Of a stretch of 64,000 nucleotides of DNA, positions 1-25,300 are shown one piece after another (the stretch's first letter is position 1; every line of letters starts with the position of its first letter). A model generated the notes under the pieces. That model saw only the letters and a list, made by a program, of their open reading frames with translations, did not search any database and had not been told where the DNA came from. This DNA comes from Hydrurus foetidus. Lineage: Eukaryota. The stretch spans positions 496,001 through 560,000 of the forward strand of contig UYFQ01000005.1 in NCBI GenBank assembly GCA_900617105.1. The letters are read 5' to 3'. Both the position numbers and the translations under genes were made by a program.

Positions 1-602
1 GTCTGCCAAGTACACCAGTCGGGTAAGGGGCAGCAGCGGGGCTATCTCGGCCAGGCGTTCGTAGCCTTCTGTCCAGCGCAAACTCTCGCTGACTCCGGGG
101 CGTGTGCCGTCAGCATTTTTTGCCTTGCGTGCCCACATCCATGCGTCCAGCACGCCCAGCGGTTCGCGGGTGGTAGAAATGGCGTAGGTGGGGTGCAGGT
201 ACATGCCGCGCTGTGGGGCGTAGCTCAGGGGTCCCAGTCCCGCAGCTTGTTGGCCGTTGAAGTCGAGTTCGGTGGTGTCTTGGATGCACAGCACGACGGG
301 GTGCGCCGCCATACGGGTCATGCTGCTTTGGACGTGGGGCTCCAAGATGTCAGTCCATTCGAAGGCATCGTTGTCGAAGAAGCGGTACGCCCCCAAGGTG
401 TCGGCCCAGTCCCCGCAGGCTTGGGGGATGCTACCGGTGGGCATCGCGCTGAAGCCTTCCATCATCTTGATTGCACGTTTGTTGCGCCTCTTGTCGCCCA
501 AATCCATCGTCTCAAACTCCCTTTTTGCCCAGTTCACTTGTGTTTCATGCTATTAAATTCGCAGCATACCTTAGGCTCGGGAGAGTTGTGTATAACGAGA
601 TG
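1..602 (-). mobile_element. IS4-family (IS50/Tn5-like) element, copy 1; left end at 602, transposase runs from ~537 off the window edge
   Basis: Reverse complement of 3578-4179; terminal sequence CATCTCGTTATACACAACT resembles the IS50 19-bp end (shared TTATACACAA). Confidence 0.93.
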
Positions 603-2714: not shown

Positions 2715-2740
2715 CTCTCGCAGCCCGGCAGGGATGCGAT

Positions 2741-2802
2741 TTTGAATTAAATCGGCTTCTAGCGCTTGATCTGAATGCACAGGTAGCTATCAAATTCATA
2801 GT
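2741..2802 (+). repeat. Dispersed ~60-bp palindromic repeat (REP/MITE-like), core GCTATCAAATTCATAGT
   Basis: Similar elements at ~37015, ~55193 (reverse), ~56688 and ~63385. Confidence 0.7.
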
Positions 2803-2925
2803 TGTGCTTTGCTTCATTTGAATTGATCAAAACGCCACTCATTACGGTTTACACATAAGCGACCGCTTGTGGGTTGGTTCAAGATCAAACTCCGGCATTG
2901 TGTGGAAAGTTGCATTTCCCACCAA

Positions 2926-6265: not shown

Positions 6266-6327
6266 CGCTGCTGGGATCAGGTTCTCACGGGAGCTTCTGG
6301 CTCAGGGGATTTGTGTATAACGAGATG

Positions 6328-6483
6328 CGCTGAAGCCTTCCATCATCTTGATTGCACGTTTGTTGCGCCTCTTGTCGCCCAAATCCATCGTCTCAAACTC
6401 CCTTGTTGCCCAGTTCACTTGTATTTCATGCTATTAAATTCGCAGCATACCTTGGGCTCGGGAGAGTTGTGTATAACGAGATG
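6328..6483 (-). mobile_element. 156-bp left-end remnant of a third, slightly divergent IS4 copy
   Basis: Matches 447-602 with a few substitutions; abuts the right end of copy 2. Confidence 0.9.
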
Positions 6484-9325: not shown

Positions 9326-9569
9326 CGTGTTGTGAGGTGCTGATGGCGTTTGCAAATCGAGGGGCTTGGGGTTAATGTGGTATTTGCTTTGCCAGCTGCT
9401 CAAATTGAGGGGGAATCGGCTTCTTGTGTTTGCTCTGGCAGGAGGACTTGTCAAGTTTCACTCGGAATAATGATAAACCTAAAACCTACGCGGTTTTACT
9501 ATATAAATTTATAATAAACAATTTTAAATATTTATTGAATAAAAATTAATAAAATTTAATTAAAAATAC

Positions 9570-10169
9570 TCACCAACAACTCAACACCCATGTATTTGAA
9601 TATTTATAAAGTAAAATCATCAGCTCCTCATCCAAATAATTAATTTTATTACTTTCCGTAATTTCTATATAACAAAATATACATGCATACTGATTTATAT
9701 TTAAATTATCATAAACAAATCTAGAGCGATCGATTAAATTTTTTGCATAATTATCCAATGGACGATCAAAAAGTCCATCACCAAAAAAATCCCAAACATC
9801 TTCATTGCCTTTCTTATAGGGCATTAGCATTTGAATTGCCATCTCATGCAACCGTGATTTTTCAAAATTAATTTCCTGCAGTACTACTTTTAGAATTGCA
9901 GGAAGATAGTAAATAAATGCCTCTTTTGTTAAGTAGCTTCTTAACTCAGAGTATCCACAGCGATATAAATCATCAGCAGAAATTTCATTCCACGGGCGAT
10001 AATTCAAAATTGATATAATATTTTCAACAGACCAAGCATCACCACTTGCATACGATAAGCATGTATTTCGAGAAATAACCGGTTCAGAGGGAAAATTTTT
10101 ATTGATCATTAATATTAATTCATCAATAGACTTGTTCCGCGAAAAATATTTACTAGACACTTTAATCAC
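9570..10169 (-). CDS. AT-rich putative immunity protein (DUF6714-like), paralog of 10691-11320
   Basis: Overlaps the stop of the orphan toxin tip by 8 bp; W..I....LT.EAFIYYLPAIL and LNINQYACIFCYIEITE motifs are shared with the paralog. Confidence 0.75.
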   Translation of the reverse strand: MIKVSSKYFSRNKSIDELILMINKNFPSEPVISRNTCLSYASGDAWSVENIISILNYRPWNEISADDLYRCGYSELRSYLTKEAFIYYLPAILKVVLQEINFEKSRLHEMAIQMLMPYKKGNEDVWDFFGDGLFDRPLDNYAKNLIDRSRFVYDNLNINQYACIFCYIEITESNKINYLDEELMILLYKYSNTWVLSCW

Positions 10170-10509
10170 CTGAAAAACATTGGTGTACAGCTTTCTTTAG
10201 TGCATTGCAAGTCGTACAGGTATTTATTGCCTTTAGTTCCTTTTCTACTTCTCCCCAATGGGATTGATCCCCACCTTGAAAGCAAGTTTCCATTATCTCG
10301 ACTCTGGCGGCTATGCAGTCTTCTGCGATTTGAATTTTTACATCAACCTTGGCACAACTCTCGCCTTTGCTTTTTCCGCCTGCACGACTGTGTGGCTTAT
10401 TACAAATAGCACTTTTAGCATCTTGCAGGATCTTATGCTGCTCCAAAGTACATGAACCATAGGGCAGTGGGGGCGTACCGTAGGGCGGTGGTCAATTGAA
10501 CTGCGCTGG
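10162..10509 (-). pseudogene. Orphan Cys-rich toxin tip (Ntox16-like), with in-frame TGA in its upstream homology region
   Basis: PAQFN*PPPYGTPPLPYGSCTLEQHKILQ...CIAARVEIMETCFQGGDQSH aligns with PAQFNWPPAG...MCTAEQH...CIVARLLVMDTCFLGGDSGH of 11317-14721. Confidence 0.8.
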
Positions 10510-10690
10510 CGACGATTTGGAACTGGTCGCGACCCAGGAAGTTGCGGGCGACGGGGCGCAGCCAGATGAATCTCAAGATGGCATCTGACGCTCGGTTTTG
10601 AACATTACATGCATGATTTCGAGATCTGACCCTCGGCTTCTTCGGGAACATTGGGTGTGAGGTCAAGTTACCCCCAATGGGGATTGAGCC

Positions 10691-11320
10691 TCAAACATTT
10701 CGCCAGAAGTCCGTGTACTTCTTCAGCAATTCATAAAACCGACGTTTGGGATCGGCACCGACACTGCCAGCATCCAAATCGAGCCGCAAGGCTTGGTAGA
10801 TCTCTGGCAAATCCCAGAAACCATTAGTTTCTGCTATTTCAATGTATTGGGCTACGCACTCGCGTTGCTCAGCAGTTAAATGCCTCTTTGCATAGGCCAC
10901 TCGATCGTGACATACATCGCGCAAAGCATATCCTAGGTCTTCCAATCCAAAACCGCTAAACTGGCTAACGACATCTTCAAGCCCAAAACCAACAGGCAAG
11001 AGCATTTCTTCAAACCAACCTAAGCTTCTTTTCTGAAGGCACGTTATCATGAAGTAGGGCAAATAGCACGCCATCCCCATAGGTGAGAGATTGACGATGA
11101 TTTCATCGGAAGGGAAAGACCGCGATGTCAGCAGAACGTCTGTCCACGCCTTTCCAACAAAGTGTTTGGCGAGTCGTCCACCGTCTACCCACGCTGGATT
11201 TCTTACGATCTGCCATTCGGATTCCAGTAGAGTCGAGGGGAAACAGCGTGGGATTTTTGAAATCAACGAATTGATCCGCCTCTCAAGCATGGCTTGAGTC
11301 TTTTGAGTTTTCTCGATCAT
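10691..11320 (-). CDS. Putative immunity protein (DUF6714-like) for the upstream toxin
   Basis: ATGA overlap with the toxin stop; GKAWTDV...LSPMGMACYLPYFM and LTAEQRECVAQYIEIAE. Confidence 0.78.
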   Translation of the reverse strand: MIEKTQKTQAMLERRINSLISKIPRCFPSTLLESEWQIVRNPAWVDGGRLAKHFVGKAWTDVLLTSRSFPSDEIIVNLSPMGMACYLPYFMITCLQKRSLGWFEEMLLPVGFGLEDVVSQFSGFGLEDLGYALRDVCHDRVAYAKRHLTAEQRECVAQYIEIAETNGFWDLPEIYQALRLDLDAGSVGADPKRRFYELLKKYTDFWRNV

Positions 11321-14300
11321 GGTGCCTTACATTGTTTTGCTTCCTGTAGGGCAAGACATCTTCCGCACTTGCTGCGTTGCTTCAATCTCCCTTCAATTTG
11401 CTCCCAGTGGCCAGAATCACCGCCTAGAAAACAGGTATCCATAACTAGTAAGCGCGCAACAATGCATTGCTCCATTGCAGCCCCCTTTTGCTGCAGCAGC
11501 GCGCAAGTCATACTTCCGTCTCCTTTGCATGACTCATTTGCCAACGGGTTTTCACAAGCCGCATCCTTGGCTGCCTCAAGCACTGCATGCTGCTCGGCAG
11601 TACACATCCCCGGAGGCTTTGCATTCGGCATGCCCGCAGGTGGCCAATTGAACTGCGCTGGCCAAGGTCTGCTACCGCTAAGCCTGTTCCAAATAGCATC
11701 GAGTAGCGGTGGAAGTTGAGGCACAGGTGCCGCAACCGCGACTTGGGAGACGGCGCCCACGGCAATGCCGCCTGCCAATACCGGACTGATGGTGGCAATC
11801 AAGAGTAGCGCAATGATCGCCGCCGCGAACAGCACAGCCGGAGTAAAGTTCGTCGTATTAGCAGGCTCTGTTGACGGCTGCAATTGACAGTCGCCTGTTT
11901 CTGCCGCACCGCGAAGACTTCCCGAAATAATGTATGCACCAACCCCAGTTTCTGGTCGAATGGCGATGTACGCAGTTCCCTGCCATCCGTTAACATTTTG
12001 CTCACTCTCCGGAATTGTGACTTGAAGTCCCCCAATCAATGCGTTAACAACCTCTTCGCGTACAGCGTTACTCATTTGGATTTGACCCAAGAATTGATCT
12101 ACATTGGCACTGGTAAGCGTAAACACCCTAAGACCTGATTCCATCGCAGTCTGTATCAACCGTACAGCCGATACCGAAGTCCCTGTCTCTCGACCAAATA
12201 CTTGATCGAATGCATCCCCTTCCAAGTAGGAAGTACGCATGCCTTGCTCACGCTGAAAAGTGGCTTGCTCCATCCCTTGAATGCCGATAATGGAATGACC
12301 AATATCCATTGTTCGACCCAAATAACTGGCACTGCGTGGAACTCCCCAGATGTATTGAACCTGTAGACCACTGCTGACCGCGCCGAGTGATGGCATGCGC
12401 TGCACCACTGCGCTCTCGCGACGGGCAATCAAAGATGCGTAGGCATCCACTTGATGCCAGTAACTCATTCCCACAGCATGCAGATTCCCTGACGATGTCG
12501 CGGGAAAGTTCATACTACTCAATTGCTTTGCTGAAATGGAATCGCCAATCACAGCCCAAACAGTTTCGTCGCCTGCGGTTGCAGTGTAAGTTTGCAGAAG
12601 GCCAGTCTGAGCAGTTTGTCCGGCCGGTATGACATTGACCTGCCATTCCACATCTTTGGCCATGCTGACAGTGTCACCAGACACGACCGTAACACCGTCA
12701 ATCTGAAACAGCGGCCTGACCCGTAAGGTATATGCAGGGAATGCAGCCGCCCCGCTGATTCTGTAGCTCGCAATGGATTGCTGGTCAATCGGTGTAGCCC
12801 CCTCATAAGTAATTCCTACCCTGCGTTGCAACAAGTCGGAAAGATTGAACATACGCCGAATCAAGGTATTGCCTGATCCTCCTGTGCCTTCAAGCTCAGA
12901 CCCGTGGAAATCAATTTTCCAGCGTAAACCATCTGGAATTTCGACCGTCTGATTGCCCACCAGGACTGTTGCATACGGCAAAGTTCCGGCTAGCATGGTG
13001 TGGGCCTGACTCCTGATTGTTTGCTTGCCAAGCACATCGTCTACGTTGAAGTTGGCTCCAGTTGTGCTGCTGTCGATGTAAGCTTTGACCTGATTCTGGT
13101 AACTGGTCATCTGGGTTTGCAGAGCCGTTAGGTTCAGATTCTGCGCGTAGTTGGGCGTGAGCGTTGCACCCTGCTGCACAGCTTGAATCAAAGCGTTCCC
13201 ATTCACAGGTACTGCCGTTTTGAGGTTAATCCCCAGTGCATAGTCGTATTGTTTGTAGCTCGCATCCAGTGGCACCCAGGCATTCAGCAGCCCGTTGGGG
13301 TTGACGTGTTGGCTGGTGCTAGCGTTAAGGTTGCCTCGGCTGGGTGTCCAGTTGACGTAAGCGTTGACCCAGACATGTTCCAGCCGGATAGTGGTGATGC
13401 GTCCGGCCTGTGCCAGGCCCATGGCGGCGATGCCACCTTGGTTAAGCAAATTCAATGCGGCTTGCGGAGTAGTCACACCACCGACCCAGTTTTGTACTCG
13501 CTCTGCCGCTATGTCCACGGTGCCGAACTGGTAGCGCGCGGGGATGTTGGCGGCGCGCAGGAGGGCGATCTCCAAGCTGGCAGTGTCAAAGGCGTTGCCT
13601 TTGCGGGCGGTAAGGGTGTAGTCCGCACTTTGGATCGCGCCCCAGGTGGGCAAGTACTGGATGTTGTTTATCACCCAGTTGTGGATGGTGACAGGGTTGT
13701 TGCCGAGTTCTGTGGCTTTGGCTTTGATAACAGGGGTGAGTGCGACTTCGGAGGTTTCAGCCAAGTCGGCGGCATTGGGGGTTTGGCTAGGCTCGGGGGG
13801 GATGCTGAACTGGATGCCGCCGATGGTGGTGTCTGTTTGGGCGAGTTTGACGTGCTGGTCGGCGTACAGGTTCTGGTACCAAGCAGTCTTGGTTTCTGCG
13901 GGCTGGCGGGTGTTGGGCTTAGGGGTACTCCAGGGCAGCTTGCTGGGATCCAGGGGGGGCGAAATTCTGGCTGCGGGGTATTGCTCGAAAAAGTTGTGAA
14001 TGGCGCTGAGGCTGGCTTCATTAGGATTGGCTTTCCAGGAGCGAAGGCGCTGGCGCAGAGTCTGAGCGCGGGTGCTGAGTTCGGTCTCGGTTTGGTCATG
14101 GCGGGCCAGGAGGATGGCGAGGGTATTCGGGTTTAGTTGTTGAGCTGACAGTTGGCTGCGGCTAGCGTGGAATTCGGCCAGCGCTGCATCGGTGTCACTG
14201 TCTATGCTGTCGAACAGGTCTCTGAGCTGTTGCAACTCGATGCTTTGCTGACTGGCGCTCTTAAGGCTCGCAACTTTGGCGCTGGGGGTTTCGGCAGTGG

Positions 14301-14721
14301 CATGCTTGACCAAGGCGCGCACGAGTTCATGGGCACGACTAAGGTTGCGTGCGGTGCGGGTGGTGGCGATCTGGTTGGTGACTGCCGCTGCCCTGATTTG
14401 GGTTAGGTCGGCTTTAGCTCGTTCAAAGCTCTGCGGCCATTGGCTCAGGCGCTGGAGTTGAGTATTAGCTATTAAATTAAGAGCGGACTGCGCTGATGCA
14501 TCTTGCGCCAGTACGCTCAACGGGGCCAGGGCGTTGCACAGCAGCACTGCGGCCAGCACGCGCGCGACCGGGCGCCGCACGGGGTGCCACGGGGTCATCG
14601 TGTTGATGGGCTCATCGGACACCTGAGTTGACGCTCGAAGGGGGTTGTGGGGTTGAAGGGTTTGGCTTGACATAGGTGTGCTCCCGCGCTGCGCTGTTTG
14701 TTGTGGTGTTCGTTGTTTCAC
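11317..14721 (-). CDS. Secreted inactive-transglutaminase polymorphic toxin with Ntox16-like C-terminus (true start possibly ATG at 14598)
   Basis: Signal peptide, GNAFDTASLEIALLRAANIPARY core, GWQGTAYIAIRPETGVGAYII junction, TM helix, C-terminal C..AR....CF.GGD.GH motif. Confidence 0.88.
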   Translation of the reverse strand: MKQRTPQQTAQRGSTPMSSQTLQPHNPLRASTQVSDEPINTMTPWHPVRRPVARVLAAVLLCNALAPLSVLAQDASAQSALNLIANTQLQRLSQWPQSFERAKADLTQIRAAAVTNQIATTRTARNLSRAHELVRALVKHATAETPSAKVASLKSASQQSIELQQLRDLFDSIDSDTDAALAEFHASRSQLSAQQLNPNTLAILLARHDQTETELSTRAQTLRQRLRSWKANPNEASLSAIHNFFEQYPAARISPPLDPSKLPWSTPKPNTRQPAETKTAWYQNLYADQHVKLAQTDTTIGGIQFSIPPEPSQTPNAADLAETSEVALTPVIKAKATELGNNPVTIHNWVINNIQYLPTWGAIQSADYTLTARKGNAFDTASLEIALLRAANIPARYQFGTVDIAAERVQNWVGGVTTPQAALNLLNQGGIAAMGLAQAGRITTIRLEHVWVNAYVNWTPSRGNLNASTSQHVNPNGLLNAWVPLDASYKQYDYALGINLKTAVPVNGNALIQAVQQGATLTPNYAQNLNLTALQTQMTSYQNQVKAYIDSSTTGANFNVDDVLGKQTIRSQAHTMLAGTLPYATVLVGNQTVEIPDGLRWKIDFHGSELEGTGGSGNTLIRRMFNLSDLLQRRVGITYEGATPIDQQSIASYRISGAAAFPAYTLRVRPLFQIDGVTVVSGDTVSMAKDVEWQVNVIPAGQTAQTGLLQTYTATAGDETVWAVIGDSISAKQLSSMNFPATSSGNLHAVGMSYWHQVDAYASLIARRESAVVQRMPSLGAVSSGLQVQYIWGVPRSASYLGRTMDIGHSIIGIQGMEQATFQREQGMRTSYLEGDAFDQVFGRETGTSVSAVRLIQTAMESGLRVFTLTSANVDQFLGQIQMSNAVREEVVNALIGGLQVTIPESEQNVNGWQGTAYIAIRPETGVGAYIISGSLRGAAETGDCQLQPSTEPANTTNFTPAVLFAAAIIALLLIATISPVLAGGIAVGAVSQVAVAAPVPQLPPLLDAIWNRLSGSRPWPAQFNWPPAGMPNAKPPGMCTAEQHAVLEAAKDAACENPLANESCKGDGSMTCALLQQKGAAMEQCIVARLLVMDTCFLGGDSGHWEQIEGRLKQRSKCGRCLALQEAKQCKAP

Positions 14722-16441
14722 TTGTCCACCGTGAAGGTGGTGGTGGCGAGCGTTTGGGCACTCCCGGCGACGGTGGCGATCAGCTCTATCTTGAGCTTGT
14801 TACCGGCTGCGCCCTGCACCACCCAGCTGGCACTGGCCGTGCTGGTTTGCCCGGTGGCGATGTCGGCGCTTTGGTTGATGTCTTGCACCAGTGTTCCCCC
14901 TGTGCTGGTGTTGGTGATGTGCAGTTTGAGCGGGATGGCGGTGGCGCTGGCCCCGGTGTTGCCCACGCTGCGGTTCAGGGCCACGGTGACTCCCGCTTTG
15001 GCGTGGGTGGGGCTGGCGCTGAGGGTGGCGCTGAGCTTGGTGGGGCCGACCAGAAGCTGGAACTGGTCACGGGCGAGCAGTTGGGTGTCGGTGTAGGCCC
15101 AGCTCAGCCCCAGGTTGTAGGCGGCGGTGACGCTGATGTCGATGGTGTCACCCACCTGCCCTGCGGCCACCCAGTTGCTGGTGCGTTGGCTGCTTTGTCC
15201 GCTGGTGAGGGTGAAGGTTTCGGTGGCGGTGAGCACGGTGCTGCCGGTGCGGCGGTTGACCCAGTTGGTGGTCACAGGCAAGGCGGTGAAGCTGCCGATG
15301 CCATTGGCGGCGAGGGTGCAGTTGTTGGTGAGGTTGCGGCTGCCCACCAGGCTGCTGCCGAGCTGGACTTGGCGGGTGCTTTGGCTGTTGACGCTGACAT
15401 CCACGCTGGTGGCCAAACAAGCCCGCTGCTGGCAGAGTTGGCGGGCCGCAGCTTGCTCGGCCCAGGCCAGGGCTTGCAGTGCTTGGCTGGTGTCGGTGTT
15501 GGCGCTGGCGATGCCACGCAGGTAGTTGGCGGCGACGAGGTATTCCACCAGGCCTTCTGCGTAGCGGCCTTGGGTGGTGAATTGTTTGCCCAAATCGGCT
15601 TGGTAGCTGGCGTTGCTGAGGGCGGTGGTGTCGGCACTGCCTGTGGGCTTGAGGGCGACCAAGGCTGCGCTGGCGTTGCCGATGAGGGTTGCGACGCTGC
15701 TGAGGGTGAAGCTGTGGGTGACGGTTTGGCTCACTGCGGTGGCCCCTGGGGCGCTGGCCTGCACTTGCACCGGTACGCTGTAGCTGCCGGCTTGCCCGCT
15801 GCTGACTTGCAAGATGAGGTTGCTGGTTTGGCCGGGTTGCAGGCTGATGGCCCAGTTCACCAGGGTGCTGCCGTTGGCTTGTGGGCTGATGTCGGCCGCA
15901 CTGGCGACACTGGGTTGCGACGCCAACAGGTTCACGCCTGCGGGCAACAGTGCTTGCACGTTGAGGCTGGCGACTTGGCTGCCGGTGTTAGCGAGCGCGG
16001 TGCTGAGGGTTTGCGGCGCACCGGGAACGGGGCTGTTGCCAGGGGCGATGCCTGCCGGGGTGGTGGCTGTGGTGGTGCTGTTGATGACGGCATTGGGTGT
16101 CGCCAAGTAGGCCAAGCTGCGCACCACGGTGTCGGCCAGCAGGCTGTCGTTGGCGGCGTTGGGTTGGGCCATGAGGGTGGCGAGGTCAAACGCGAAGGTC
16201 AGCGCGTGGCCGGTGCCCAGGGTTTTGCTGATGATGGCGGGGATGCCTCCGGCGAACATGGCTTGAACGGTGCCGCCGCTGGTGACGCTGTTCGCACCTG
16301 TGCTCAAGCTGAAGCGGGTGGGGGTGCCCAGGGTTTTGAGGCCAGCAGCGGGGTACAGGCTGCCTCCCAAGCTGGCGATGCTGTTGGCGGGCAAGGCGGC
16401 GGTTTGTTGCACCACGCCCATGTAGGGGTGCAGGTACATGG
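14501..16441. repeat. ~1.94-kb direct repeat, copy 2 (3' part of the giant gene plus toxin signal-peptide region)
   Basis: Near-identical to 20459-22399 at offset 5958; visible differences only near the edges. Confidence 0.95.
14718..16441 (-). pseudogene. Duplicated C-terminal ~574 codons of the giant protein
   Basis: Protein matches the end of 20676-28238 from MYLHPYMGVV; no signal peptide. Confidence 0.88.
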
Positions 16442-16605
16442 CGGATGTGGATGCCTGCGGCTCGCAGGAGGGCGATGAGCCGACGAACTGTGCCACGTCG
16501 ATAACAAGACTTTCCGCCCGCCCGCCCCAGGCGAATAACGCCATATACGCAGGCAGTACCGCTACTTATAGCTATCGAATTAGAAGTACCCACGTTATGA
16601 CACAC

Positions 16606-17250
16606 TCAAAGTGAGGTCATCGAAAAAGAAACTTCAATACTGCCATGCATCAATCCAGAGAAATGCTCAAAAATAAATGGGTTTTCATCAGGTGGATCTA
16701 CAGAAAAATCAAGTAAATCAGCCCCTATTGACAATAAAGACTTAGCCCCAGCACCAATTTGAAGAGTTCCAGTCACCCATGGCGGTGCATCAGAAATTTT
16801 CGCAAAAGTACTTTCTTGAAATCCAAATCCAAAATAAGGCAAATCCCAATGCGATATATTATCTTTAACATTATAGCTATTTAAATTTTTTTTATATTTA
16901 ATTTCATTAACAATAAAATTGTTTAAAAAAATACAATCTATAGGTCTATTTATGTAAATTGAATTTATTTTAGATTTTGAATTTTTTAATTTAATCCAAA
17001 TAGCTTCTCCTGGCCCGGATATTGCAACAATAGAAATTATTGCAGCCAATTTTATTAATTCATTTTTTGAAATGAAAATGTTAAATCTATTTCTTCCAAA
17101 TTCAGTCCATGCTGATTTTGTGTTAATATGATCAACATCAGCAATCAAAGAAGTAGATTCATTCAATAATATTACATCTTTACTGGAAAAAGTTGCTTCG
17201 CCTAATTTAGCATCATCACAAATAACGGAAAGTGATTTATTTGTTTTCAT
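16606..17250 (-). CDS. Very AT-rich putative immunity protein (214 aa)
   Basis: Starts 3 bp after the toxin stop; strong compositional contrast; no recognised family. Confidence 0.72.
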   Translation of the reverse strand: MKTNKSLSVICDDAKLGEATFSSKDVILLNESTSLIADVDHINTKSAWTEFGRNRFNIFISKNELIKLAAIISIVAISGPGEAIWIKLKNSKSKINSIYINRPIDCIFLNNFIVNEIKYKKNLNSYNVKDNISHWDLPYFGFGFQESTFAKISDAPPWVTGTLQIGAGAKSLLSIGADLLDFSVDPPDENPFIFEHFSGLMHGSIEVSFSMTSL

Positions 17251-17253
17251 AAA

Positions 17254-20200
17254 TTAATTACTAAAAGCTCCACCCGCATTAATAACCCAATCTACCCTAT
17301 ATCCATCACGCCCAGAAAAATTAGGTTTTGGATAGCTACCACCATCTGGCGCGCAAAGCCCAGAAGGACTTACACTCATAATATAATTCTCAAGCTTTAA
17401 AAACCAAGGCTCTCTTAGGGTTAAAGCTTTGTTATTGTAAAGACCTACTTGCGCTTTCAAAATTGAAACCAAACCCAATGCTTCTGATTTAGTTAGTGGC
17501 GTTGCCTGGGCCCAATTTACCGATATTGTCCATTGATTTGGTAGACGTTTCTTTTGTGATGGCATATCTGATCCTTGCGCTTGAAAACTTCCTCTATGGC
17601 ATTTATCGCTTGGACATGGACTTGAACTAGCCGCGTTTGCTTTAAATGTTAAAAATGTCATCCCTATCGCAGTCATTACCTGAAAAATGGCAGGCGATAA
17701 AACTGGAACAACTGTAGCAGAAGCCGCCAACCCTGCCTCTGCTATTAACAACATGGCTAGTCGGATGACCATTTGCGTGAGTATTCGCTGTGAAATTGAC
17801 TGAACCAAAGGCTGTGTTTTAGGTTCGCATAGCACCAATTCACTACCATTACTGCCATCGATAATATAGGCACCAGCACCCGTAATAGGATCTGTAGCAA
17901 TATACGCCTGCCCTGTCCAACCAGAAAATTTAACTACATCTTCAGGAGCCAAAACAACCAAACCACTTGTGACCGCATCACCAATTTGTTGGCGCATGGC
18001 ATAAGAAATTTCTGTCGCACCAAGGTAATTTTCTAAATTATCCTTATCAATTTTCCATATTGCAACTCCAACACTACTCGCCGCTGAAATAACACTAACA
18101 GCAGATATGCCATTACCAGGGGCCAAACCCAGCAGTTCTTCAAATATCCGCCCCTCCAGAAAGGAGTTTTTGATGCCGATGCGCTTCATGTATTCCACCG
18201 TCGCACCGGGGTCGCTCATGCCTGTCACGGCTGAGATCATGCGCCTTATGTCTACGGCGTAGCTGCTGTATTGCCCTTGGCGTGGGATGCCCCACGAGTA
18301 CTGTACGGTTAAGGGGCTGGTGAACAGGCCTACTGAGGGGAGTCGGTAGGCTTGTACGTTGGCGGTTTTAGCCATCATGGCGTCGGATACGTTGGCGCGT
18401 GACCAGTAGCCCAGGGCCATGTGGTGCAGGTTTTCCAGTGCGGTGTCGGGGTTGACTTGGGCTGCCCTGTTGGCTACGTCGTCCAGGCTGAGACCGCTGG
18501 CATCTACGCCGAAAACGATGGCATCACCGACTGCGCTTTCTCGTTTGAAGTCTTCTTCTATGGGCCCAAAGTTGGGGCCTTGGAGGATGTAGTTCCACCA
18601 TTGGGTGTCGCCCATGCGTTGGGCGGGGACTTCGGCGAGCAAGGTGTCGTCGAGTTTGAATTGGAGTTTTTGGCGGATCAGGTACAGCGGTAAGGCGCTG
18701 GCGTTGTTGGTGACGTACAGGTCTATGACTTGCTGGTCTGCGGGGGTGGCGGCTACGTAGGTGGCGGCCAAGCGCTTGTTGCCTATTTGCGAGAGCCGCA
18801 GGCTTTGCGTCATGCTGGGGGTGTCTGTGGCTTTGTCGTTGTCTGAGGCGTAGAGCTTGAAGCTGATTTTCCAGCGCAGGGTGTCGGGTATTTGCTGGGT
18901 TTCGTTGCCTGCCATGGTGATGGGGTAGGGCAAGGTGCCGGGCAGCAGGCTGAAGTTTTGAGGGCGTATGGTTTGTCGCCCGGTGATGTCTGCTGTGGTG
19001 GCGTTTGCACCTACGGTGGCGGTGACGTAGGTTTGCAGGCGGGTTTGGTAGTCGGTAAATTGGGTTTGCAAATTGGCTTGGTTCAGCCCTTGCACGGTGT
19101 TGGCTGTGACGGTGGCGCCATCTTGCACGGCTGCTTGCAAGGCGTTGGCATCCATAGGGACTGCCGCTGGTAAATCTAAGCCTGGGGTGTAGTCGTACTG
19201 TTTGTAGCTGGCATCCAGGGGTGTCCATGCGTTGAGCAGGCCGTTGGGGTTGACGTGCTGGGTGGCATTGGCGTTTTTGTTGCCTCGGCTGGGTGTCCAG
19301 TTGACGTAGGCGTTGACCCAGACATGCTCCATGCGGATGGCTGTGATGTGCCCGGCTTGTGCCACGCCTATGGCGGCGATGCCGCCTTGGTTTAGCAAGT
19401 TCAGTGCGGCTTGCGGTGTGGTGACTCCGCCTAACCAGTTTTGTACGCGCTCTGCGGCTATGTCTACGGTGCCAAACTGGTAACGCGCGGGGATGCCTGC
19501 GGCTCGCAAGAGGGCAATCTCTAGGCTGGCGGTATCAAAGGCGTTGCCTCTGCGAGCGGTGAGTGTGTAGTCGGCACTTTGGATTGCGCCCCAGGTGGGC
19601 AGGTATTGGACGTTGTTTCTCACCCAGTTATGGATGGTGACGGGGTTGTTACCGAGTTCTGTGGCTTTGGCTTGGAGGGCGGGGGTGAGCTGGGTTTCGT
19701 CGCTGGTGCTCAGGTCTGCGGCGGTGGGCGCTTGGGTGGGTTCGGGGGGAATGTTGAATTGGATACCACCAATGGTGGTGCCTGTCGTGGCTTGGGCGAG
19801 TCGTATTTTTTGGTCTGCGTAGAGGTTTTGAAACCACGCCGTTTTGGTTTGCGCGGGGGTGCGTTGGTTGGGCTTGGCACTGCCCCACGGGAGTTGGTTG
19901 TGGTCGGTGGGGACGTGTGTTTTACCGGCCCCGGCTCCGGGGTACTGGGCCATGTGCAGGGCCAGGGCGTAGGTATTGGTGTCTGTGGGGTTGGCGGCTG
20001 CGGTGGCTGCGAGTTGGCTGAATTGGCTGGCTTTGGCGCTGAGTTGCTGCTGGGCCGCATCATGACGGGTGAGCAGTTCGCTCACTGTTTGGGCAGACAG
20101 TTCGCCTTTTCTTCCGATCTCTTGCAGTTGCGCTCGGGCTGCATGCATCTCATCGGTGATGGTGCTTTGGGCGCTTTGGGTGTCGTAGAGCAGGCCGCGT

Positions 20201-20679
20201 AGGGTGGTTTTAAGGTCTGTGGCTCTTTGCGGGGTCAGGGTGGTTTGCGCGGATGTTTGCGGAGCTGCTGTACGTGACAAGGCGGCAGATGGGGGTTGCC
20301 GGACTGTCACGCTGGGCTTGGATGCTTCGGGGTGCAGGGTCTTGAGGAGGTCTGCGATCCGCTCTATGCGGCGCTGGGCCACTTCAGTATCGCTGGGCAC
20401 TAGGCTCGTTGTTTGTGGGATGGCTGCGGTGCTTTGGGTTGTTGTGCTTTTAGGATTCTCTTGCGCCAACACGCTCAAGGGGGCCAGGGCGTTGCACAGC
20501 AGCACTGCGGCCAGCACGCGCGCGACCGGGCGCCGCACGGGGTGCCACGGGGTCATCGTGTTGATGGGCTCATCGGACACCTGAGTTGACGCTCGAAGGG
20601 GGTTGTGGGGTTGAAGGGTTTGGCTTGACATAGGTGTGCTCCCGCGCTGCGCTGTTTGTTGTGGTGTTCGTTGTTTCAC
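17254..20679 (-). CDS. Secreted inactive-transglutaminase polymorphic toxin with an unassigned C-terminal domain (true start possibly ATG at 20556)
   Basis: Same signal peptide and core motifs (GNAFDTASL, EHVWV, WTPLDAS); GWTGQAYIATDPITGAGAYII junction; AT-rich tip HRGSFQAQG...RVDWVINAGGAFSN. Confidence 0.88.
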   Translation of the reverse strand: MKQRTPQQTAQRGSTPMSSQTLQPHNPLRASTQVSDEPINTMTPWHPVRRPVARVLAAVLLCNALAPLSVLAQENPKSTTTQSTAAIPQTTSLVPSDTEVAQRRIERIADLLKTLHPEASKPSVTVRQPPSAALSRTAAPQTSAQTTLTPQRATDLKTTLRGLLYDTQSAQSTITDEMHAARAQLQEIGRKGELSAQTVSELLTRHDAAQQQLSAKASQFSQLAATAAANPTDTNTYALALHMAQYPGAGAGKTHVPTDHNQLPWGSAKPNQRTPAQTKTAWFQNLYADQKIRLAQATTGTTIGGIQFNIPPEPTQAPTAADLSTSDETQLTPALQAKATELGNNPVTIHNWVRNNVQYLPTWGAIQSADYTLTARRGNAFDTASLEIALLRAAGIPARYQFGTVDIAAERVQNWLGGVTTPQAALNLLNQGGIAAIGVAQAGHITAIRMEHVWVNAYVNWTPSRGNKNANATQHVNPNGLLNAWTPLDASYKQYDYTPGLDLPAAVPMDANALQAAVQDGATVTANTVQGLNQANLQTQFTDYQTRLQTYVTATVGANATTADITGRQTIRPQNFSLLPGTLPYPITMAGNETQQIPDTLRWKISFKLYASDNDKATDTPSMTQSLRLSQIGNKRLAATYVAATPADQQVIDLYVTNNASALPLYLIRQKLQFKLDDTLLAEVPAQRMGDTQWWNYILQGPNFGPIEEDFKRESAVGDAIVFGVDASGLSLDDVANRAAQVNPDTALENLHHMALGYWSRANVSDAMMAKTANVQAYRLPSVGLFTSPLTVQYSWGIPRQGQYSSYAVDIRRMISAVTGMSDPGATVEYMKRIGIKNSFLEGRIFEELLGLAPGNGISAVSVISAASSVGVAIWKIDKDNLENYLGATEISYAMRQQIGDAVTSGLVVLAPEDVVKFSGWTGQAYIATDPITGAGAYIIDGSNGSELVLCEPKTQPLVQSISQRILTQMVIRLAMLLIAEAGLAASATVVPVLSPAIFQVMTAIGMTFLTFKANAASSSPCPSDKCHRGSFQAQGSDMPSQKKRLPNQWTISVNWAQATPLTKSEALGLVSILKAQVGLYNNKALTLREPWFLKLENYIMSVSPSGLCAPDGGSYPKPNFSGRDGYRVDWVINAGGAFSN

Positions 20680-22399
20680 TTGTCCACCGTGAAGGTGGTG
20701 GTGGCGAGCGTTTGGGCACTCCCGGCGACGGTGGCGATCAGCTCTATCTTGAGCTTGTTACCGGCTGCGCCCTGCACCACCCAGCTGGCACTGGCCGTGC
20801 TGGTTTGCCCGGTGGCGATGTCGGCGCTTTGGTTGATGTCTTGCACCAGTGTTCCCCCTGTGCTGGTGTTGGTGATGTGCAGTTTGAGCGGGATGGCGGT
20901 GGCGCTGGCCCCGGTGTTGCCCACGCTGCGGTTCAGGGCCACGGTGACTCCCGCTTTGGCGTGGGTGGGGCTGGCGCTGAGGGTGGCGCTGAGCTTGGTG
21001 GGGCCGACCAGAAGCTGGAACTGGTCACGGGCGAGCAGTTGGGTGTCGGTGTAGGCCCAGCTCAGCCCCAGGTTGTAGGCGGCGGTGACGCTGATGTCGA
21101 TGGTGTCACCCACCTGCCCTGCGGCCACCCAGTTGCTGGTGCGTTGGCTGCTTTGTCCGCTGGTGAGGGTGAAGGTTTCGGTGGCGGTGAGCACGGTGCT
21201 GCCGGTGCGGCGGTTGACCCAGTTGGTGGTCACAGGCAAGGCGGTGAAGCTGCCGATGCCATTGGCGGCGAGGGTGCAGTTGTTGGTGAGGTTGCGGCTG
21301 CCCACCAGGCTGCTGCCGAGCTGGACTTGGCGGGTGCTTTGGCTGTTGACGCTGACATCCACGCTGGTGGCCAAACAAGCCCGCTGCTGGCAGAGTTGGC
21401 GGGCCGCAGCTTGCTCGGCCCAGGCCAGGGCTTGCAGTGCTTGGCTGGTGTCGGTGTTGGCGCTGGCGATGCCACGCAGGTAGTTGGCGGCGACGAGGTA
21501 TTCCACCAGGCCTTCTGCGTAGCGGCCTTGGGTGGTGAATTGTTTGCCCAAATCGGCTTGGTAGCTGGCGTTGCTGAGGGCGGTGGTGTCGGCACTGCCT
21601 GTGGGCTTGAGGGCGACCAAGGCTGCGCTGGCGTTGCCGATGAGGGTTGCGACGCTGCTGAGGGTGAAGCTGTGGGTGACGGTTTGGCTCACTGCGGTGG
21701 CCCCTGGGGCGCTGGCCTGCACTTGCACCGGTACGCTGTAGCTGCCGGCTTGCCCGCTGCTGACTTGCAAGATGAGGTTGCTGGTTTGGCCGGGTTGCAG
21801 GCTGATGGCCCAGTTCACCAGGGTGCTGCCGTTGGCTTGTGGGCTGATGTCGGCCGCACTGGCGACACTGGGTTGCGACGCCAACAGGTTCACGCCTGCG
21901 GGCAACAGTGCTTGCACGTTGAGGCTGGCGACTTGGCTGCCGGTGTTAGCGAGCGCGGTGCTGAGGGTTTGCGGCGCACCGGGAACGGGGCTGTTGCCAG
22001 GGGCGATGCCTGCCGGGGTGGTGGCTGTGGTGGTGCTGTTGATGACGGCATTGGGTGTCGCCAAGTAGGCCAAGCTGCGCACCACGGTGTCGGCCAGCAG
22101 GCTGTCGTTGGCGGCGTTGGGTTGGGCCATGAGGGTGGCGAGGTCAAACGCGAAGGTCAGCGCGTGGCCGGTGCCCAGGGTTTTGCTGATGATGGCGGGG
22201 ATGCCTCCGGCGAACATGGCTTGAACGGTGCCGCCGCTGGTGACGCTGTTCGCACCTGTGCTCAAGCTGAAGCGGGTGGGGGTGCCCAAGGTTTTAAGTC
22301 CGGCGGCGGGGTACAGGCTGCCACTCAAGCTGGCGATGCTGTTGGAGGGCAAGGCGGCGGTTTGTTGCACCACGCCCATGTAGGGGTGCAGGTACATGG
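20459..22399. repeat. ~1.94-kb direct repeat, copy 1
   Basis: Matches 14501-16441. Confidence 0.95.
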
Positions 22400-25300
22400 G
22401 CTCTAGCCATTCGGGGGTGCCGTCTACGACGATGCCTGCCCCGCGCTGCGCGGCTTCTCGCATTTCTTTGGGGTCGTACACGGTGAACTTGAGCGAGGCT
22501 CCGCCGCTCACCCAAAAGATGTTGTAGTTGCCGCAGCGCAGCTCTTGGCGGAACTCTGCGGCGCTGGTGACGACTTTGGCGGGAACCGCTAACTGGGCGA
22601 AGTAGTTGCGCAGGGCTTGCGCTTTGGTTTCATCGCAGGCGGGGCTTTGGTTGGCACCGTCATCGCTGTAAATGCAGCTGACCAGCATGAGCACGCGGGG
22701 GTTGCTGGTGGTGCTGATTTGGGTCGTGATTTGCACAGGCGGGGTGGCCGGGGCCGTCACGCTGAAGCTGGTGGTGGCCAACAAGGTGGTGCTGGCCGTG
22801 GCGGTGCCAGTGGTCGTGGTGCTGGCACTCAAGCTGGCGGTATAGCGGCTGCCCGCAGGGCCGGGGGGTGTCCAGCTTTGGTTGCTGCTGAAACTGCCAT
22901 TGGCCGACAAACTGGCAGGCACGGCCCACTGGGCCGCGACGGTGCTGGTGCCCGCTGGGGAAACAGCCAGCGTGGCGGTGGTAGCCACAGCTTGGCTGTT
23001 GGGGTTGCTCAGACGGTAGAGCAGTTGCACAGCAGCGCCGCTTGCCACCGCGCTGGGGCTGGCGGACAGGGTGCCTGTCAAGGGCTGAAGAGGAACCACT
23101 GGCGCACCGCGCAAGGTGAAGGGCGCTTGGGCCAGGGGAAGTTCGTTGCTTGTGGGCAACTGCACGGTGGCTGTGGCGATCAAAGCCAAGCCATCGGTGC
23201 CAGCAGCAGGCCAATTCCAGCTCAAGCTTTGTGAAGCTCCCACGGGCCATGCGGCAACGGTTTGGGTGAAGGTGCCGAGTACCGCGCCTGTGGCGGGGTT
23301 GAGCACGCGCACACGCACCGTAGCGTTGCTGACGGTGGCATTGCCGCTGTTGGTGGCGGTCAATTGCAGGGTCAAGTTTTGCCCGACTGTCACGGGGTTG
23401 GGGCTGGCTTGCAATTGACCGAGCAGGCCGATACCGGTTTGGTCACTGCCGATCACGCTGAATGCGGCGCTGCCCTGGGCCACAGTAGCACCTTGGGCGT
23501 TGCGCACCACAAACTGCGCTTGGTAAGTGCCAGGGCTCAGGGTGTTGGCGGCGAGGCTGTAGCTGAAGCTGCGTTGCCCTTGGGCGGCGAGTTGAGCGAG
23601 GCTTTCGACCTTGCTGAACACCACTGCACCAGTGCTGTTGGTGACAGTGGTCGTCGCGCTGAGGTTGTCTTGCGGGGTGTTGGTGGTCAGGTTGGTTGCG
23701 AGCGAAGTCACTTGCACGGTTTGCGCTGCTGTATAGCTCACACGGTCGGTACGAATGTTGCCGCTCAGGGCCGCGCTTTGGCTGGCTTGCACAGTGAAGT
23801 TGGCTGTGGCAGTGCCGTAAACAATACCTGCGGGGGTAATGAGTTCAGCCTTGATTTGGTAAGCACCAGCCAATACACCAGAAGTCGCCCAAAGGGCGGT
23901 GGCTTGCCCGCTGACACCCGACGCTACGTTGAAGCTCACACCCAGAGGTAAGGCATCAACCGTCTTTCCGGTGGAATCCAACACGGTAAACCGCACCAAA
24001 GGATCACGGGCAAAGCTGCCTGCATTGGTGACAGTGGCGGTGAAGGTGGCTTGCTCGGCTTCGGTGTAAGTGGGTTTGCTCGTGGCGACGGCGAGACCAA
24101 GATTGACCGCTATAGCTGACACATCGGCCACCAGCAGGTTGTTGCTGCGGTCAAAGTCAGCGATGCTGGTTTTACCGGTGCCATCGTCATCGGCGACGAT
24201 CCACAGTGTGCCGTTAGGTATCGCCACATTCAAGCCGCCTGGAAGTGCGAATGTGATGTCTCTATAGTCACCGGGTGCTATGACTTGTTCAAGTAGAGCG
24301 GTACCCAGCAAAACTGAAGACCGTGGTGCACTGCTGTTGGGATTGGCGTTGTAAAAAGCAATTTTTGTTGCAGCAGGTATTTTGTCGGAACCACCATTAC
24401 CAAGGCGAATGGTAAGGACGGAACCCACTGAACTTTGATCGGCTATTCGCAGATAGGACACGGTCAAATCAGGTACCGCACGAGGATCTGCGTCGAGACG
24501 CTTATTAAGACGAAAGGTGTTTTGGGCTTTCCAATTTGGAATTTGAATTTTTGGAACTGTCAAATCATCATTGATATTGGTAATGCTGTAGTCGTATTGA
24601 TTCCACAGACTGCGAGTAGAAACCCAGGCATTGTTGATGTCTTGATATACATAAATCCCATGTTGAGCGCCGCCAAAAGTACCGTCACCTGGAACGATCA
24701 AATTTGCATGACCATCACCACTTGCATCCACAACCAAAGGGTATTCAGCACCAGTGGATGAACTGCTTGTTTTTTCAAACAGCACAGCGCCTGTGGCACC
24801 GTCATACACCCGCAACTTATCTTGATCGCGGTAAATTACCTCCACTTTTCCATCACCATCAAAGTCAAATGCGGTTGAGCCAGTATTGGCAGACCCATCT
24901 TTGATTGGCGAGATCCACGCTACGGATCCATCAGAACGGATGACGGTGTAATTCCATATGCTTGCCACACCGATATCAGGCAAGCCATCACCATCAAAAT
25001 CAGCGATCGTTGCCGCCCCCCCTGCACCACCATCAGCCAACGAAACGGGCCCCCAAATCGTCTGCCCCTCATTGCTGACCAACCACACTTGGCCATGTGC
25101 AACCTGCACCAACTCAGGCACACCATCGTTATTAAAGTCAGCGAAAGGCATAGACCAAAGAGACGAACTGTCTGGGCCACGCCACATGAATGTGCCATTG
25201 CTTGCGAAAACAGCAGGGCCACAAATAATTTGCAACCCAGGCATGGTTTGAGAAATTTTTGCAGCATTAGATGCATCTTCCGGATAACACCGTCCTGAAG

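Follow-up and report, generated by a model that had tools for sequence, protein, structure and literature searches.

In known polymorphic-toxin loci (Rhs, CDI and T6SS modules), recombination swaps toxin tips or accumulates immunity genes. At the rhs locus of Salmonella Typhimurium, recombination across a 522-bp repeat of 95% identity fuses a stored toxin to the delivery part by homologous recombination, and amplification of the locus has been invoked against the loss of immunity (Koskiniemi et al. 2014, PMC3967940). For CDI and Rhs loci, 'reloading' has been discussed together with its cost, the loss of the immunity gene (Poole et al. 2011, PMC3150448), and the same drawback is discussed in PMC3967940. 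Effector-immunity modules of the Vibrio cholerae T6SS are added by homologous and illegitimate recombination, with conserved upstream genes serving as anchors (Kirchberger et al. 2017, PMC5361080), and polymorphic toxins with an inactive N-terminal transglutaminase have also been described (section 19 of Zhang et al. 2012, PMC3482391). Our comparisons with these systems refer to the parts of the four papers that treat the loci in question.

We analyzed a stretch of 64,000 nucleotides (the window) in which a giant gene and two toxin genes are tied together by a long direct repeat. The minus strand carries all genes, in the order giant gene, toxin 1, 214-aa ORF, 164-nt spacer, 5'-cut giant fragment and toxin 2, the last being followed by a 209-aa ORF, a tip-only Ntox16 orphan, a DUF6714 ORF and two toxin copies cut by IS elements. 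The features are as follows.

20676..28238, minus strand: giant gene, 2,520 aa (ORF, Pfam, match to a relative, fold model)
20459..22399, minus strand: repeat copy B, with giant codons 1947-2520 and stop (20676-22399), spacer (20557-20675) and toxin 1 signal-peptide start (20459-20556)
17254..20679, minus strand: toxin 1, ORF of 1,141 aa, likely true start ATG 20556 (Pfam, alignment)
16606..17250, minus strand: 214-aa ORF, immunity gene predicted by position only; low GC, no family
16442..16605, minus strand: 164-nt spacer ending at the illegitimate junction, with a toxin-core scrap at 16449-16476
14501..16441, minus strand: repeat copy A, with giant fragment (14718-16441), spacer and toxin 2 signal-peptide start
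11317..14721, minus strand: toxin 2, ORF of 1,134 aa with Ntox16 tip, likely start ATG 14598, built like toxin 1
10691..11320, minus strand: 209-aa ORF, predicted immunity gene, weak DUF6714 relative
10162..10527, minus strand: tip-only orphan Ntox16 module without delivery part (Ntox16 E 1.1e-11)
9570..10169, minus strand: DUF6714 ORF, 199 aa, predicted immunity gene of the orphan (Pfam)
6434..9454, minus strand: toxin copy 3, 3' end cut at an IS4-type end (6484)
571..2817, minus strand: toxin copy 4, an N-terminally incomplete fragment, also cut at an IS4-type end

The two repeat copies lie on the same strand (14501-16441 and 20459-22399) at an offset of 5,958 and match over 1,941 bp, ungapped and 99.43% identical (11 mismatches), while identity outside both edges is at background (0.08-0.38 per 50 nt). 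Chance cannot account for so long a match. On the minus strand, the repeat contains 1,724 nt of the giant gene (codons 1947-2520 and stop), 119 nt of intergenic sequence and 98 nt of toxin start (MTPWHPV...LSVLAQ); it breaks off exactly at the end of the signal-peptide-like segment ...LSVLAQ. Copy B leads into a tip without a Pfam family and copy A into an Ntox16 tip. The first-pass annotation had thus been right that the last ~1.72 kb of giant-gene sequence, together with the signal-peptide region, is duplicated almost exactly at a 5958-bp offset, in front of a different toxin. The offset defines a unit of which 4,017 bp are unique, namely mature toxin 1, the 214-aa ORF and the 164-nt spacer. 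Family searches of this unit returned no recombinase, integration or replication gene, a scan of 10000-28000 gave no inverted repeat of 40 nt or more, and IS elements lie at least 8 kb away; these results do not point to a site-specific mobile cassette (integron-like or island).

Differences between the copies were confined to the edges, with 3 mismatches in the outermost 21 nt on the toxin side and the other 8 in 16331-16388, such that the exact core (14522-16330) differs at none of its 1,809 positions. Placement of all 11 mismatches in 132 of the 1,941 positions has P ~1e-13 under a uniform distribution, for edge zones defined post hoc with the data already seen. Relatives differed from the window inside the repeat at 14 of 578 and 20 of 762 nt, and the 16331-16388 patch was polymorphic in wild relatives (X1 and X3), whose haplotypes combine copy-A and copy-B letters. 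GC content was 66% in the repeat and 34-50% in the toxin tips and downstream ORFs.

We assessed copy number by searching the contigs of two public runs, X5 and X6 (Logan contigs), for junctions and depth; the runs are possibly the window's own source data and are therefore not counted as independent strains. All four junction types were present in both, with unitigs that connect the repeat to each of its four neighbours (giant gene, spacer, toxin 1 and toxin 2). The core formed a single 1,809-bp unitig (depth 93.6 and 95.5, unique flanks 52.5-61; ratio 1.67 and 1.69), and a 118-bp edge bubble was present in both allelic forms, with depths of 49.8 + 56.7 in X5 and 43 + 49.2 in X6 (sums 106.5 and 92.2). 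The three unique parts stood at about 1:1:1 in both runs, with the unit at chromosome depth, and the contigs displayed no deletion, circle, amplification or other recombinant form. These depths directly show two repeat copies per genome at about equal dosage, as seen in contigs that cannot phase the repeat, where entry-exit linkage is invisible and a crossover inside the exact core creates no new 31-mer. Core depth was 1.7x and not 2.0x, for which GC bias (66% vs. about 50-55% in the flanks) is one possible cause. The window also separates IS copies of 1,332 bp that are 100% identical, which suggests a long-read or finished assembly.

Alignment of the four toxin paralogues showed a common signal peptide, transglutaminase core and conserved body, followed by divergent tips. 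Toxin 1 comprises, in order, the signal peptide, transglutaminase core, conserved body, a hydrophobic stretch and a tip for which scans including Pfam returned no known family, and the tip of toxin 2 is Ntox16 (Pfam, E 3.5e-11). Transglut_core was detected in the toxins at E 3e-14 to 1e-12 (Pfam). Alignment to 3isr set GVCRDFA against GNAFDTA, placing Ala at the position of the Cys that we take to be the transglutaminase nucleophile, and GNAFD was read in all four copies. Their sequences point to Sec-type polymorphic toxins with an inactive transglutaminase core, in which Ala replaces the catalytic Cys. Scans with Pfam and NCBIfam found no RHS family in toxins 1-4, and Pfam found no TPS, RHS or VENN features at the locus. 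Toxin 1 was 50% identical over 1,108 aa to the toxin of a related locus (L029). Toxin copy 3 has only the signal-peptide region in common with copies 1 and 2 (9225-9332, 93%) and an AT-rich upstream region of its own, and copy 4 is 91% identical to copy 3.

Each toxin is followed by a small low-GC ORF with a candidate immunity role, and the tip-only orphan is 42% identical to toxin 2 aa 1015-1128. The 209-aa ORF behind toxin 2 resembles DUF6714 weakly (E 0.066), is 38% identical over 65 aa to the DUF6714 ORF and 29% identical to the ORF 3' of an Ntox16 toxin in another locus (L027), such that DUF6714 or a weak likeness to it occurs behind Ntox16 tips in both places. Immunity, secretion and expression are predicted roles for every gene of the locus.

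The giant gene encodes CarboxypepD_reg, FG-GAP, CARDB and MG2-like domains (Pfam), and a fold model places a ThuA-like alpha/beta domain around aa 1850-2070 (match to ThuA-like 1t0b, E 8e-4, with a modest TM of 0.35/0.48). Over 1,765 aa it was 43% identical to the large gene that precedes the transglutaminase toxin in L004; giant genes paired upstream of the toxin in relatives encode 1,800-2,600 aa with FG-GAP, CARDB and CarboxypepD_reg. The pairing of a giant gene with an inactive-transglutaminase toxin was found in 5 of 401 sampled family genomes and in 3 of 67 genomes of one genus. The junction at 16441|16442 is sharp and non-homologous and adjoins a scrap of transglutaminase-toxin core (IALLRAAGI) that forms the last 28-36 nt of the spacer (16449-16476) and that blastn-short matched over 25 nt at 96% to 19491-19515 and 8248-8272 (E 2e-6). 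This scrap indicates that the junction is illegitimate and its history complex.

High-identity direct repeats flanking toxin units were general in relatives (571 bp at 99.3% in L003, 588 bp at 98.6% in L004, 804 bp at 91% in L028, 1,952 bp at 88% in L029 and 600 bp at 92.5% in L030), which carry tip orphans (L004, L028, L029 and L030) as well as tandem whole toxin genes. Among 15 related loci whose sequence continues for about 1 kb or more past a toxin, one had a giant fragment behind the toxin, so that an arm made of giant gene is rare and not a rule of the family. That locus is metagenome contig L025, in which the giant 3' part is followed by a toxin and then by a second giant 3' fragment (836 bp, 86%; dN/dS 0.13 over 271 codons between the copies).

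We consider it probable that the repeat is the scar of a duplicative recombination that added a toxin and predicted-immunity module, that it has since been homogenized by conversion, and that it now offers a substrate for RecA-type crossovers deleting or amplifying the 5,958-bp unit. One module, carrying the 3' part of a functional giant allele, would have come from another strain or a second module and been joined through two events, one homologous and the other illegitimate; homogenization of the middle 1.8 kb between the copies would have followed. An imported allele fits the codon differences between the copies, of which 8 of 10 are synonymous, and the mixed haplotypes in X1 and X3; with the low GC of the tips and ORFs, these observations lend support to the earlier suggestion of a horizontally acquired cassette. 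An exact core with diverged edges, while relatives differ inside the repeat, fits gene conversion, and the exact core could alternatively reflect a very recent event between near-identical strains. Toxins 1 and 2 are both probably expressed now, and deletion and amplification variants would arise at low frequency, with deletion presumably counter-selected because the likely immunity gene of toxin 1 would go too.

A possible, if somewhat unlikely, history starts from two full giant-toxin modules, the fragment being what remained after a subsequent deletion that began within a toxin gene and reached giant codon 1946. The ancestor would have had both modules in tandem or have received a full one. 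Such a deletion is consistent with the position of the 28-36-nt toxin-core scrap exactly at the junction, very short as this scrap is, and with mostly synonymous differences, as between two once-functional genes, also reflected in the dN/dS of 0.13 in L025. Relatives supply a 60-aa scrap of giant N-terminus before the second full toxin of L029 and a genome with two separate giant-toxin loci (G003), but no further piece of a second giant gene was found in the window. From duplicative recombination this history differs in the order of events alone, and it predicts the same present structure.

An adaptive switch of the kind proposed for CDI/Rhs orphans, with toxin 2 as a silent store that a crossover would bring into place behind the intact giant gene to give the cell a different weapon, appears doubtful. 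The geometry fits and is as first described for this locus, since a single crossover in the 1,809 bp of exact homology, 6 kb apart, would remove or add exactly 5,958 bp and leave the intact giant gene with the Ntox16 toxin behind it. An rhs model with experiment (PMC3967940) and the cdiA 'reloading' idea (PMC3150448) have been published, and L025 repeats the design. However, toxin 2 is full length: it has a start and signal peptide of its own as well as the whole conserved body, and it shares with toxin 1 the 1.84 kb that precede the gene. A terminator scan gave 25 sites, no more than in shuffled sequence (mean 26.3), with no conspicuous candidate between the modules, and the predicted fold of the spacer RNA was not better than in shuffled sequence (z −0.62). 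Toxin 2 therefore need not be silent, which undercuts the first-pass premise of an expression site. Deletion by crossover would also cost the likely immunity gene of toxin 1, X5 and X6 depths give no sign of a subpopulation, and the L025 copies have drifted to 86%, indicating that they persisted there and were not recombined away.

It is distinctly improbable that the giant 3' end and signal-peptide region form a maintained, concertedly evolving portable arm, having arisen at least twice (window and L025), by which whole toxin-immunity pairs are stacked, swapped or amplified behind one giant gene. Such an arm would accompany every toxin-immunity pair and amount to a system of whole-gene cassettes for an uncharacterised delivery pair of giant protein and inactive-transglutaminase toxin.

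Very unlikely, in turn, is that the fragment encodes a functional, shortened version of the giant C-terminus that serves toxin 2, which would make the repeat a functional duplicate and not an arm alone. Its ORF is open and extends to an ATG at 16544 (14718-16544, 608 aa), with another ATG at the repeat edge, and the two known fragments, in the window and L025, begin within about 30 residues of each other. Yet the edge Met was not conserved in any of five aligned relatives, and the first 34 residues are unrelated sequence. The fragment begins within the ThuA-like alpha/beta domain, which the model predicts to be split after its fourth strand, and is without the conserved block upstream of the cut (VVT..EF..MRCGNYN..SGG..ELREA..GAG..DG); it is not a domain-wise module. 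A search for stand-alone proteins of similar length yielded one match (P0001, 458 aa), itself beginning mid-domain. The mostly synonymous differences, with the L025 ratio of 0.13 over 271 codons, are compatible with a working protein, but recent import from a functional allele accounts equally for these signals of purifying selection.

An assembly artefact, with the repeat collapsed or mis-joined or two strains merged, is extremely improbable: the contigs link no entry to exit and their graph also fits a chromosome running from giant gene to toxin 2 plus a 5,958-bp circle, but the four junction types and both edge alleles stand at single-copy depth and the core at about twice that in two runs, the unit matches the chromosome in depth and is without a replication or integration gene, and resolution of the 1,332-bp identical IS copies hints at a long-read or finished assembly.

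With duplicative recombination as the preferred reading, homology is supplied by an upstream partner gene distinct from the toxin gene, such that a complete toxin gene gets stacked. Through the repeat, a cell could lose one toxin unit or gain extra copies of it, a variation on the toxin-gene arrays already known. Should deletion or amplification variants exist, the locus would offer a simple natural model of how whole toxins are chosen and dosed in a delivery pair that has been little studied, a giant FG-GAP/CARDB/ThuA-like protein with an inactive-transglutaminase toxin; if they do not exist, it is a recombination scar and nothing more.

As in the V. cholerae T6SS, whole modules appear to have been added and old parts displaced downstream, whereas in V. 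cholerae the old effector is lost and immunity genes alone accumulate; the sections of PMC5361080 on these modules describe no duplicated piece of an upstream gene, and the delivery machine in the window is not a T6SS. The toxins resemble those of Zhang et al. in their signal peptide, Cys-to-Ala transglutaminase core, variable tips (Ntox16) and Sec/T2SS class, but in that account RHS repeats follow the transglutaminase domain, whereas none were found here (PMC3482391). Pairing with an upstream FG-GAP/CARDB/CarboxypepD_reg gene of 1,800-2,600 aa is not mentioned in the part of that paper on these toxins. Features by which Zhang et al. 2012 recognize polymorphic toxins were found in the conserved body with unrelated tips and in the downstream orphan cassette (9570-10527).

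The closest parallels are with Rhs and CDI. As in Salmonella rhs, a direct repeat ties the main toxin gene to a downstream toxin/immunity module, but the rhs arm (522 bp, 95%) is inside the toxin gene and its orphan is without delivery part and start (PMC3967940), whereas the arm here is longer and more similar (1,941 bp, 99.4%), lies mostly in a separate upstream gene plus the signal-peptide region, and is followed by a complete toxin. Displaced toxin/immunity pairs behind the main gene are shared with CDI/Rhs loci, the tip-only orphan (10162-10527) being of the classical kind (PMC3150448). CDI/Rhs orphans are described there as C-terminal tips joined at VENN or PxxxxDPxGL motifs, while Pfam found no VENN in the window. 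Near identity to the stored module, a feature of 'reloading', is present but outside the toxin body, and the silent module without start or delivery part is not matched by the full-length toxin 2. The locus had been proposed to be unlike tip exchange, which holds for the stacking of whole genes but not for the tip-only Ntox16 orphan here and the tip orphans of relatives. By analogy, the geometry appears to be a new variation on Rhs/CDI-type arrays.

We compared the window with itself using a repeat finder, an offset scan and self-BLAST, and all three placed the same direct repeat at 14501–16441 (copy A, ahead of toxin 2) and 20459–22399 (copy B, at the 3′ end of the giant gene ahead of toxin 1), at an offset of 5,958 bp. 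The copies were 1,941 bp long and aligned without gaps, with 11 mismatches (99.43% identity) and an exact core of 1,809 bp (14522–16330), and in the offset scan identity dropped straight to background beyond either edge. The duplication of the end of the giant gene and the toxin signal-peptide region, described at this offset in the first-pass annotation, is therefore genuine. Each copy comprised giant codons 1947–2520 (1,724 nt), an intergenic spacer and 98 nt coding for MTPWHPV...LSVLAQ, and the repeat boundary coincided with the point where the mature toxins begin to diverge. GC content was 66% in the repeat compared to 34–50% in the toxin tips and downstream ORFs. Every gene of the locus lies on the minus strand, in the following order:

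20676–28238, minus: giant gene, 2,520 aa, with CarboxypepD_reg, FG-GAP, CARDB and an MG2-like match
119 nt, minus: intergenic spacer between giant gene and toxin 1, inside the repeat
17254–20679, minus: toxin 1, ORF from 20679; likely start the ATG at 20556, as the region similar to the third paralogue begins ~10 nt ahead of it
16606–17250, minus: low-GC ORF of 214 aa after toxin 1, predicted immunity gene
164 nt: spacer between the 214-aa ORF and copy A
14501–16441, minus: copy A, with a 5′-cut giant fragment whose open reading frame (608 aa) runs from an ATG at 16544
11317–14721, minus: toxin 2, with an Ntox16 tip (E = 3.5e-11)
After toxin 2, minus: ORF of 209 aa with weak DUF6714 likeness
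After the 209-aa ORF, minus: tip-only Ntox16 orphan, 42% identical to toxin 2 aa 1015–1128
After the Ntox16 orphan, minus: DUF6714 ORF
Beyond the DUF6714 ORF, minus: third toxin copy, preceded by an AT-rich region of its own
End of the locus: IS4- and IS256-type elements and a fourth toxin fragment

The 11 mismatches were confined to the edges of the repeat, with three no more than 21 nt from the toxin-side edge (14511, 14512 and 14521) and eight at 16331–16388, followed by 53 identical nt to the far edge (p ~1e-13 if spread uniformly, with edge zones set after viewing the data). The copies differed in 10 codons, of which eight were synonymous (three in the signal peptide, five in the giant gene) and two changed an amino acid (S1965A and S1972G), a pattern that reads as alleles diverged while functional rather than decay after copying. 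The patch at 16331–16388 was also polymorphic among wild relatives sampled in two public metagenomes, X1 and X3: the X1 contig had the copy-B letter at five sites and the copy-A letter at two, while the X3 contig, which continues into the giant gene, had the copy-B letter at two sites and the copy-A letter at one. Within the repeat, these relatives differed from the window at 14/578 and 20/762 nt, compared to 0 of 1,809 core positions between copies A and B. We infer that at least one repeat copy is probably of foreign ancestry and that the middle of the repeat was probably homogenised by gene conversion, which typically leaves repeat edges untouched. Alternatively, the uniformity could come from an event that took place only very recently between strains that were almost identical.

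In the same metagenomes, the 3′ part of the giant gene (about 20600–23500) was 2–8% diverged from the window and the 5′ part and toxin-tip pieces 0–1%, which points tentatively to the 3′ end as a zone of recombination within the population. The giant gene was itself a GC mosaic, with 46–54% in its 5′ part (about 24000–28238) and 62–66% in its 3′ part. Pieces without differences lay on toxin 2 and its downstream ORF in X3, which had none on the toxin 1 unit, and X1 yielded a toxin 1 tip piece of 224 bp and nothing from the toxin 2 side. These gaps are only a lead that the toxin carried may vary between wild strains, as absence at the 2–6× depth of these runs is no evidence.

No likeness to the giant gene was found upstream of copy A by sequence comparison. 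In local alignment, the final 28–36 nt of the 164-nt spacer read IALLRAAGI(HIR) and matched the transglutaminase core of toxins 1–3 (25 nt at 96%, E = 2e-6); because this toxin-core scrap abuts giant codon 1947, the join is illegitimate and the locus must have undergone more than one rearrangement. A tblastx search for the origin of the spacer among related loci found nothing. Five relatives shared a conserved block just upstream of the cut (VVT..EF..MRCGNYN..SGG..ELREA..GAG..DG), and the predicted structure of giant aa 1800–2150 was a single α/β domain running across the cut (mean pLDDT 61, residues 143–215 poor), with a modest best structural match to ThuA-like 1t0b (E = 8e-4, TM 0.35/0.48). 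With the cut placed off a domain border, the giant fragment looks like a truncated by-product. Stand-alone proteins resembling it were limited to one match among 7,997 scored candidates. The repeat edge coincides with an in-frame ATG, which might have marked a modular gene start; this reading was rejected, as the Met was not conserved and the cut lies mid-domain.

Copy number was assessed in contigs from public sequencing runs placed on 16442–26000 and 9400–16441. Two runs from one study, X5 and X6, contained 0.99 of the sampled words and are possibly the assembly's own data, while four metagenomes contained small shares; near-identical wild strains appeared in metagenomes from a lake and a biofilm. 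The repeat core formed a single 1,809-bp unitig at depths of 93.6 and 95.5 (X5 and X6, respectively), compared to 52.5 and 53.7 for the unique unitig on the toxin 2 side (5,277 bp), 60.5 and 61 for the toxin 1 unit (2,899 bp), and 55.5 and 55.3 for the giant gene (6,162 bp). Both alleles of a 118-bp edge bubble were present (49.8 + 56.7 in X5, 43 + 49.2 in X6), and their sums of 106.5 and 92.2, together with core-to-flank depth ratios of 1.67–1.69, indicate two repeat copies per genome and a unit dosage equal to that of its neighbours. X5 and X6 contig depths thus pointed to neither a net amplification nor a net loss of the 5,958-bp unit, with rare crossover variants invisible to contigs because a crossover inside the exact core creates no new word. 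Unitigs entering from either toxin extended 51 nt into the repeat, and those entering from the spacer or the giant gene extended 30 nt; contigs cannot connect repeat entries with exits. A joint from 21982 to 23040, one side of which had 25 letters (X5 and X6), and short joints near 13902–14501 (X5) were taken as paralogue cross-matches.

The pairing of a giant FG-GAP/CARDB/CarboxypepD_reg gene with a transglutaminase toxin was kept in Acidovorax, Paracidovorax, Xylophilus and other Burkholderiales at 33–44% identity. Its distribution is sparse: in searches with the giant C-terminus, a family sample of 401 genomes yielded matches in 5, and 67 genomes of one genus in 3 (best 44% identity). None of the 246 pattern matches from a metagenome scan with this query was confirmed, and a scan with the toxin alignment gave only three short contigs. 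Toxin arrays behind one giant gene were common among related loci:

L028: two full toxins and two tip orphans
L029: two full toxins, the second preceded by a 60-aa scrap of a giant N-terminus
L030 and L004: tip orphans
L026 and L027: second toxin gene beginning after the first

Toxin units of relatives were flanked by high-identity direct repeats located in the toxin genes. Giant-like sequence downstream of the toxin occurred in one of 15 loci with ~1 kb or more downstream, namely the metagenome contig L025, whose order is giant 3′ part, toxin, small hydrophobic ORF and a second giant 3′ part (836 bp, 86%). There, the giant 3′ copies had a dN/dS of 0.13 over 271 codons and the fragment started at most about 30 residues from the start of the window fragment. 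As L025 matches the window design, this design arose, or was kept, more than once.

In L003, from another genome, 10222–10792 and 13365–13935 formed a 571-bp direct repeat (99.3%) of the toxin 5′ part just downstream of the toxin, the same theme with the arm placed elsewhere. Tandem repeats of ~1.5 kb with 84–95% identity at L029 405–3474 (genome G413), downstream of a toxin-1-like gene, may represent a repeated array of small genes, possibly encoding immunity proteins. One Acidovorax genome (G003) had two separate giant–toxin loci, L004 and L030, with one giant gene of 1,851 aa without the long C-terminal part and another of 2,558 aa resembling that of the window.

All four toxin copies had in common a signal peptide, Transglut_core, a conserved body ending GWTG..Y..DP.TGAG.Y.I.G and a hydrophobic stretch, while their tips were unrelated to each other in alignment. 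An ESM Atlas search with the toxin 1 tip gave no usable match. The hydrophobic stretch, ~40–50 residues between the GWTG...TGAGAY motif and the variable tip of each toxin (17254–17733, 11317–11900 and copy 4), was judged by eye to be two likely membrane helices, which would be unusual for a Sec-exported toxin and may be relevant to delivery. Toxin copy 3 was the paralogue nearest to Acidovorax orthologues (57–62% identity); its AT-rich upstream stretch (9455–9570, ~30–38% GC compared to 57% in the window) has promoter-like hexamers on the minus strand at 9527–9498, so that this copy may possess its own promoter.

Two mutually inverted IS256-family copies (4934–6265 and 49599–50930) were 1,332 bp each and 100% identical (transposase E = 3e-123), and recombination between them would invert ~43 kb including the entire toxin locus. 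IS4-family copies or ends lie at 1–603, 3577–4179 and 6327–6484, the first two inverted and 100% identical. Toxin copies 3 and 4 were cut at the same IS4-type end, and 825–2531 matched 6484–8178 at 91%; the IS4 end with toxin body is thus a second and older duplication.

The most likely reading of the repeat is a scar of duplicative recombination that would have stacked a whole toxin–immunity module. On this reading conversion has kept the copies uniform, and RecA-type recombination between them could still delete or amplify the 5,958-bp unit. Such deletion or amplification is possible because of the 1.8-kb exact homology and the rhs precedent, a recombination repeat of 522 bp at 95% described in PMC3967940. 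The first-pass annotation had further proposed that the repeat could reload the expression site with a new toxin. This idea restates the model for cdiA in Poole et al. (PMC3150448), whose discussion of reloading includes its cost, the loss of the immunity gene, and it is weaker here because toxin 2 is complete, has the same 1.84 kb upstream and is separated by no terminator signal. Between the modules, scans gave 25 terminators compared to 26.3 in shuffles (no excess) and 14 promoters compared to 10.0 (counts judged no higher), and the spacer RNA fold (z −0.62 vs. shuffles) gave no terminator signal.

A literature search found Ntox16, DUF6714, PF15523 and PF20461 only in Zhang et al. 2012 and, judged by titles and abstract openings, no paper on the giant–transglutaminase toxin pair. 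The Cys of GVCRDFA in the transglutaminase-like protein 3isr aligned with the Ala of toxin GNAFDTA, which places the toxins among the polymorphic toxins that Zhang et al. (PMC3482391) class as 'inactive transglutaminase'; the ones described there carry RHS repeats, whereas the toxins of the window are without them. Whole-module displacement using upstream anchors is also known from Vibrio T6SS clusters (PMC5361080). The present case is of moderate interest, chiefly for a recombination arm that sits in a distinct partner gene within a toxin pair yet to be studied.
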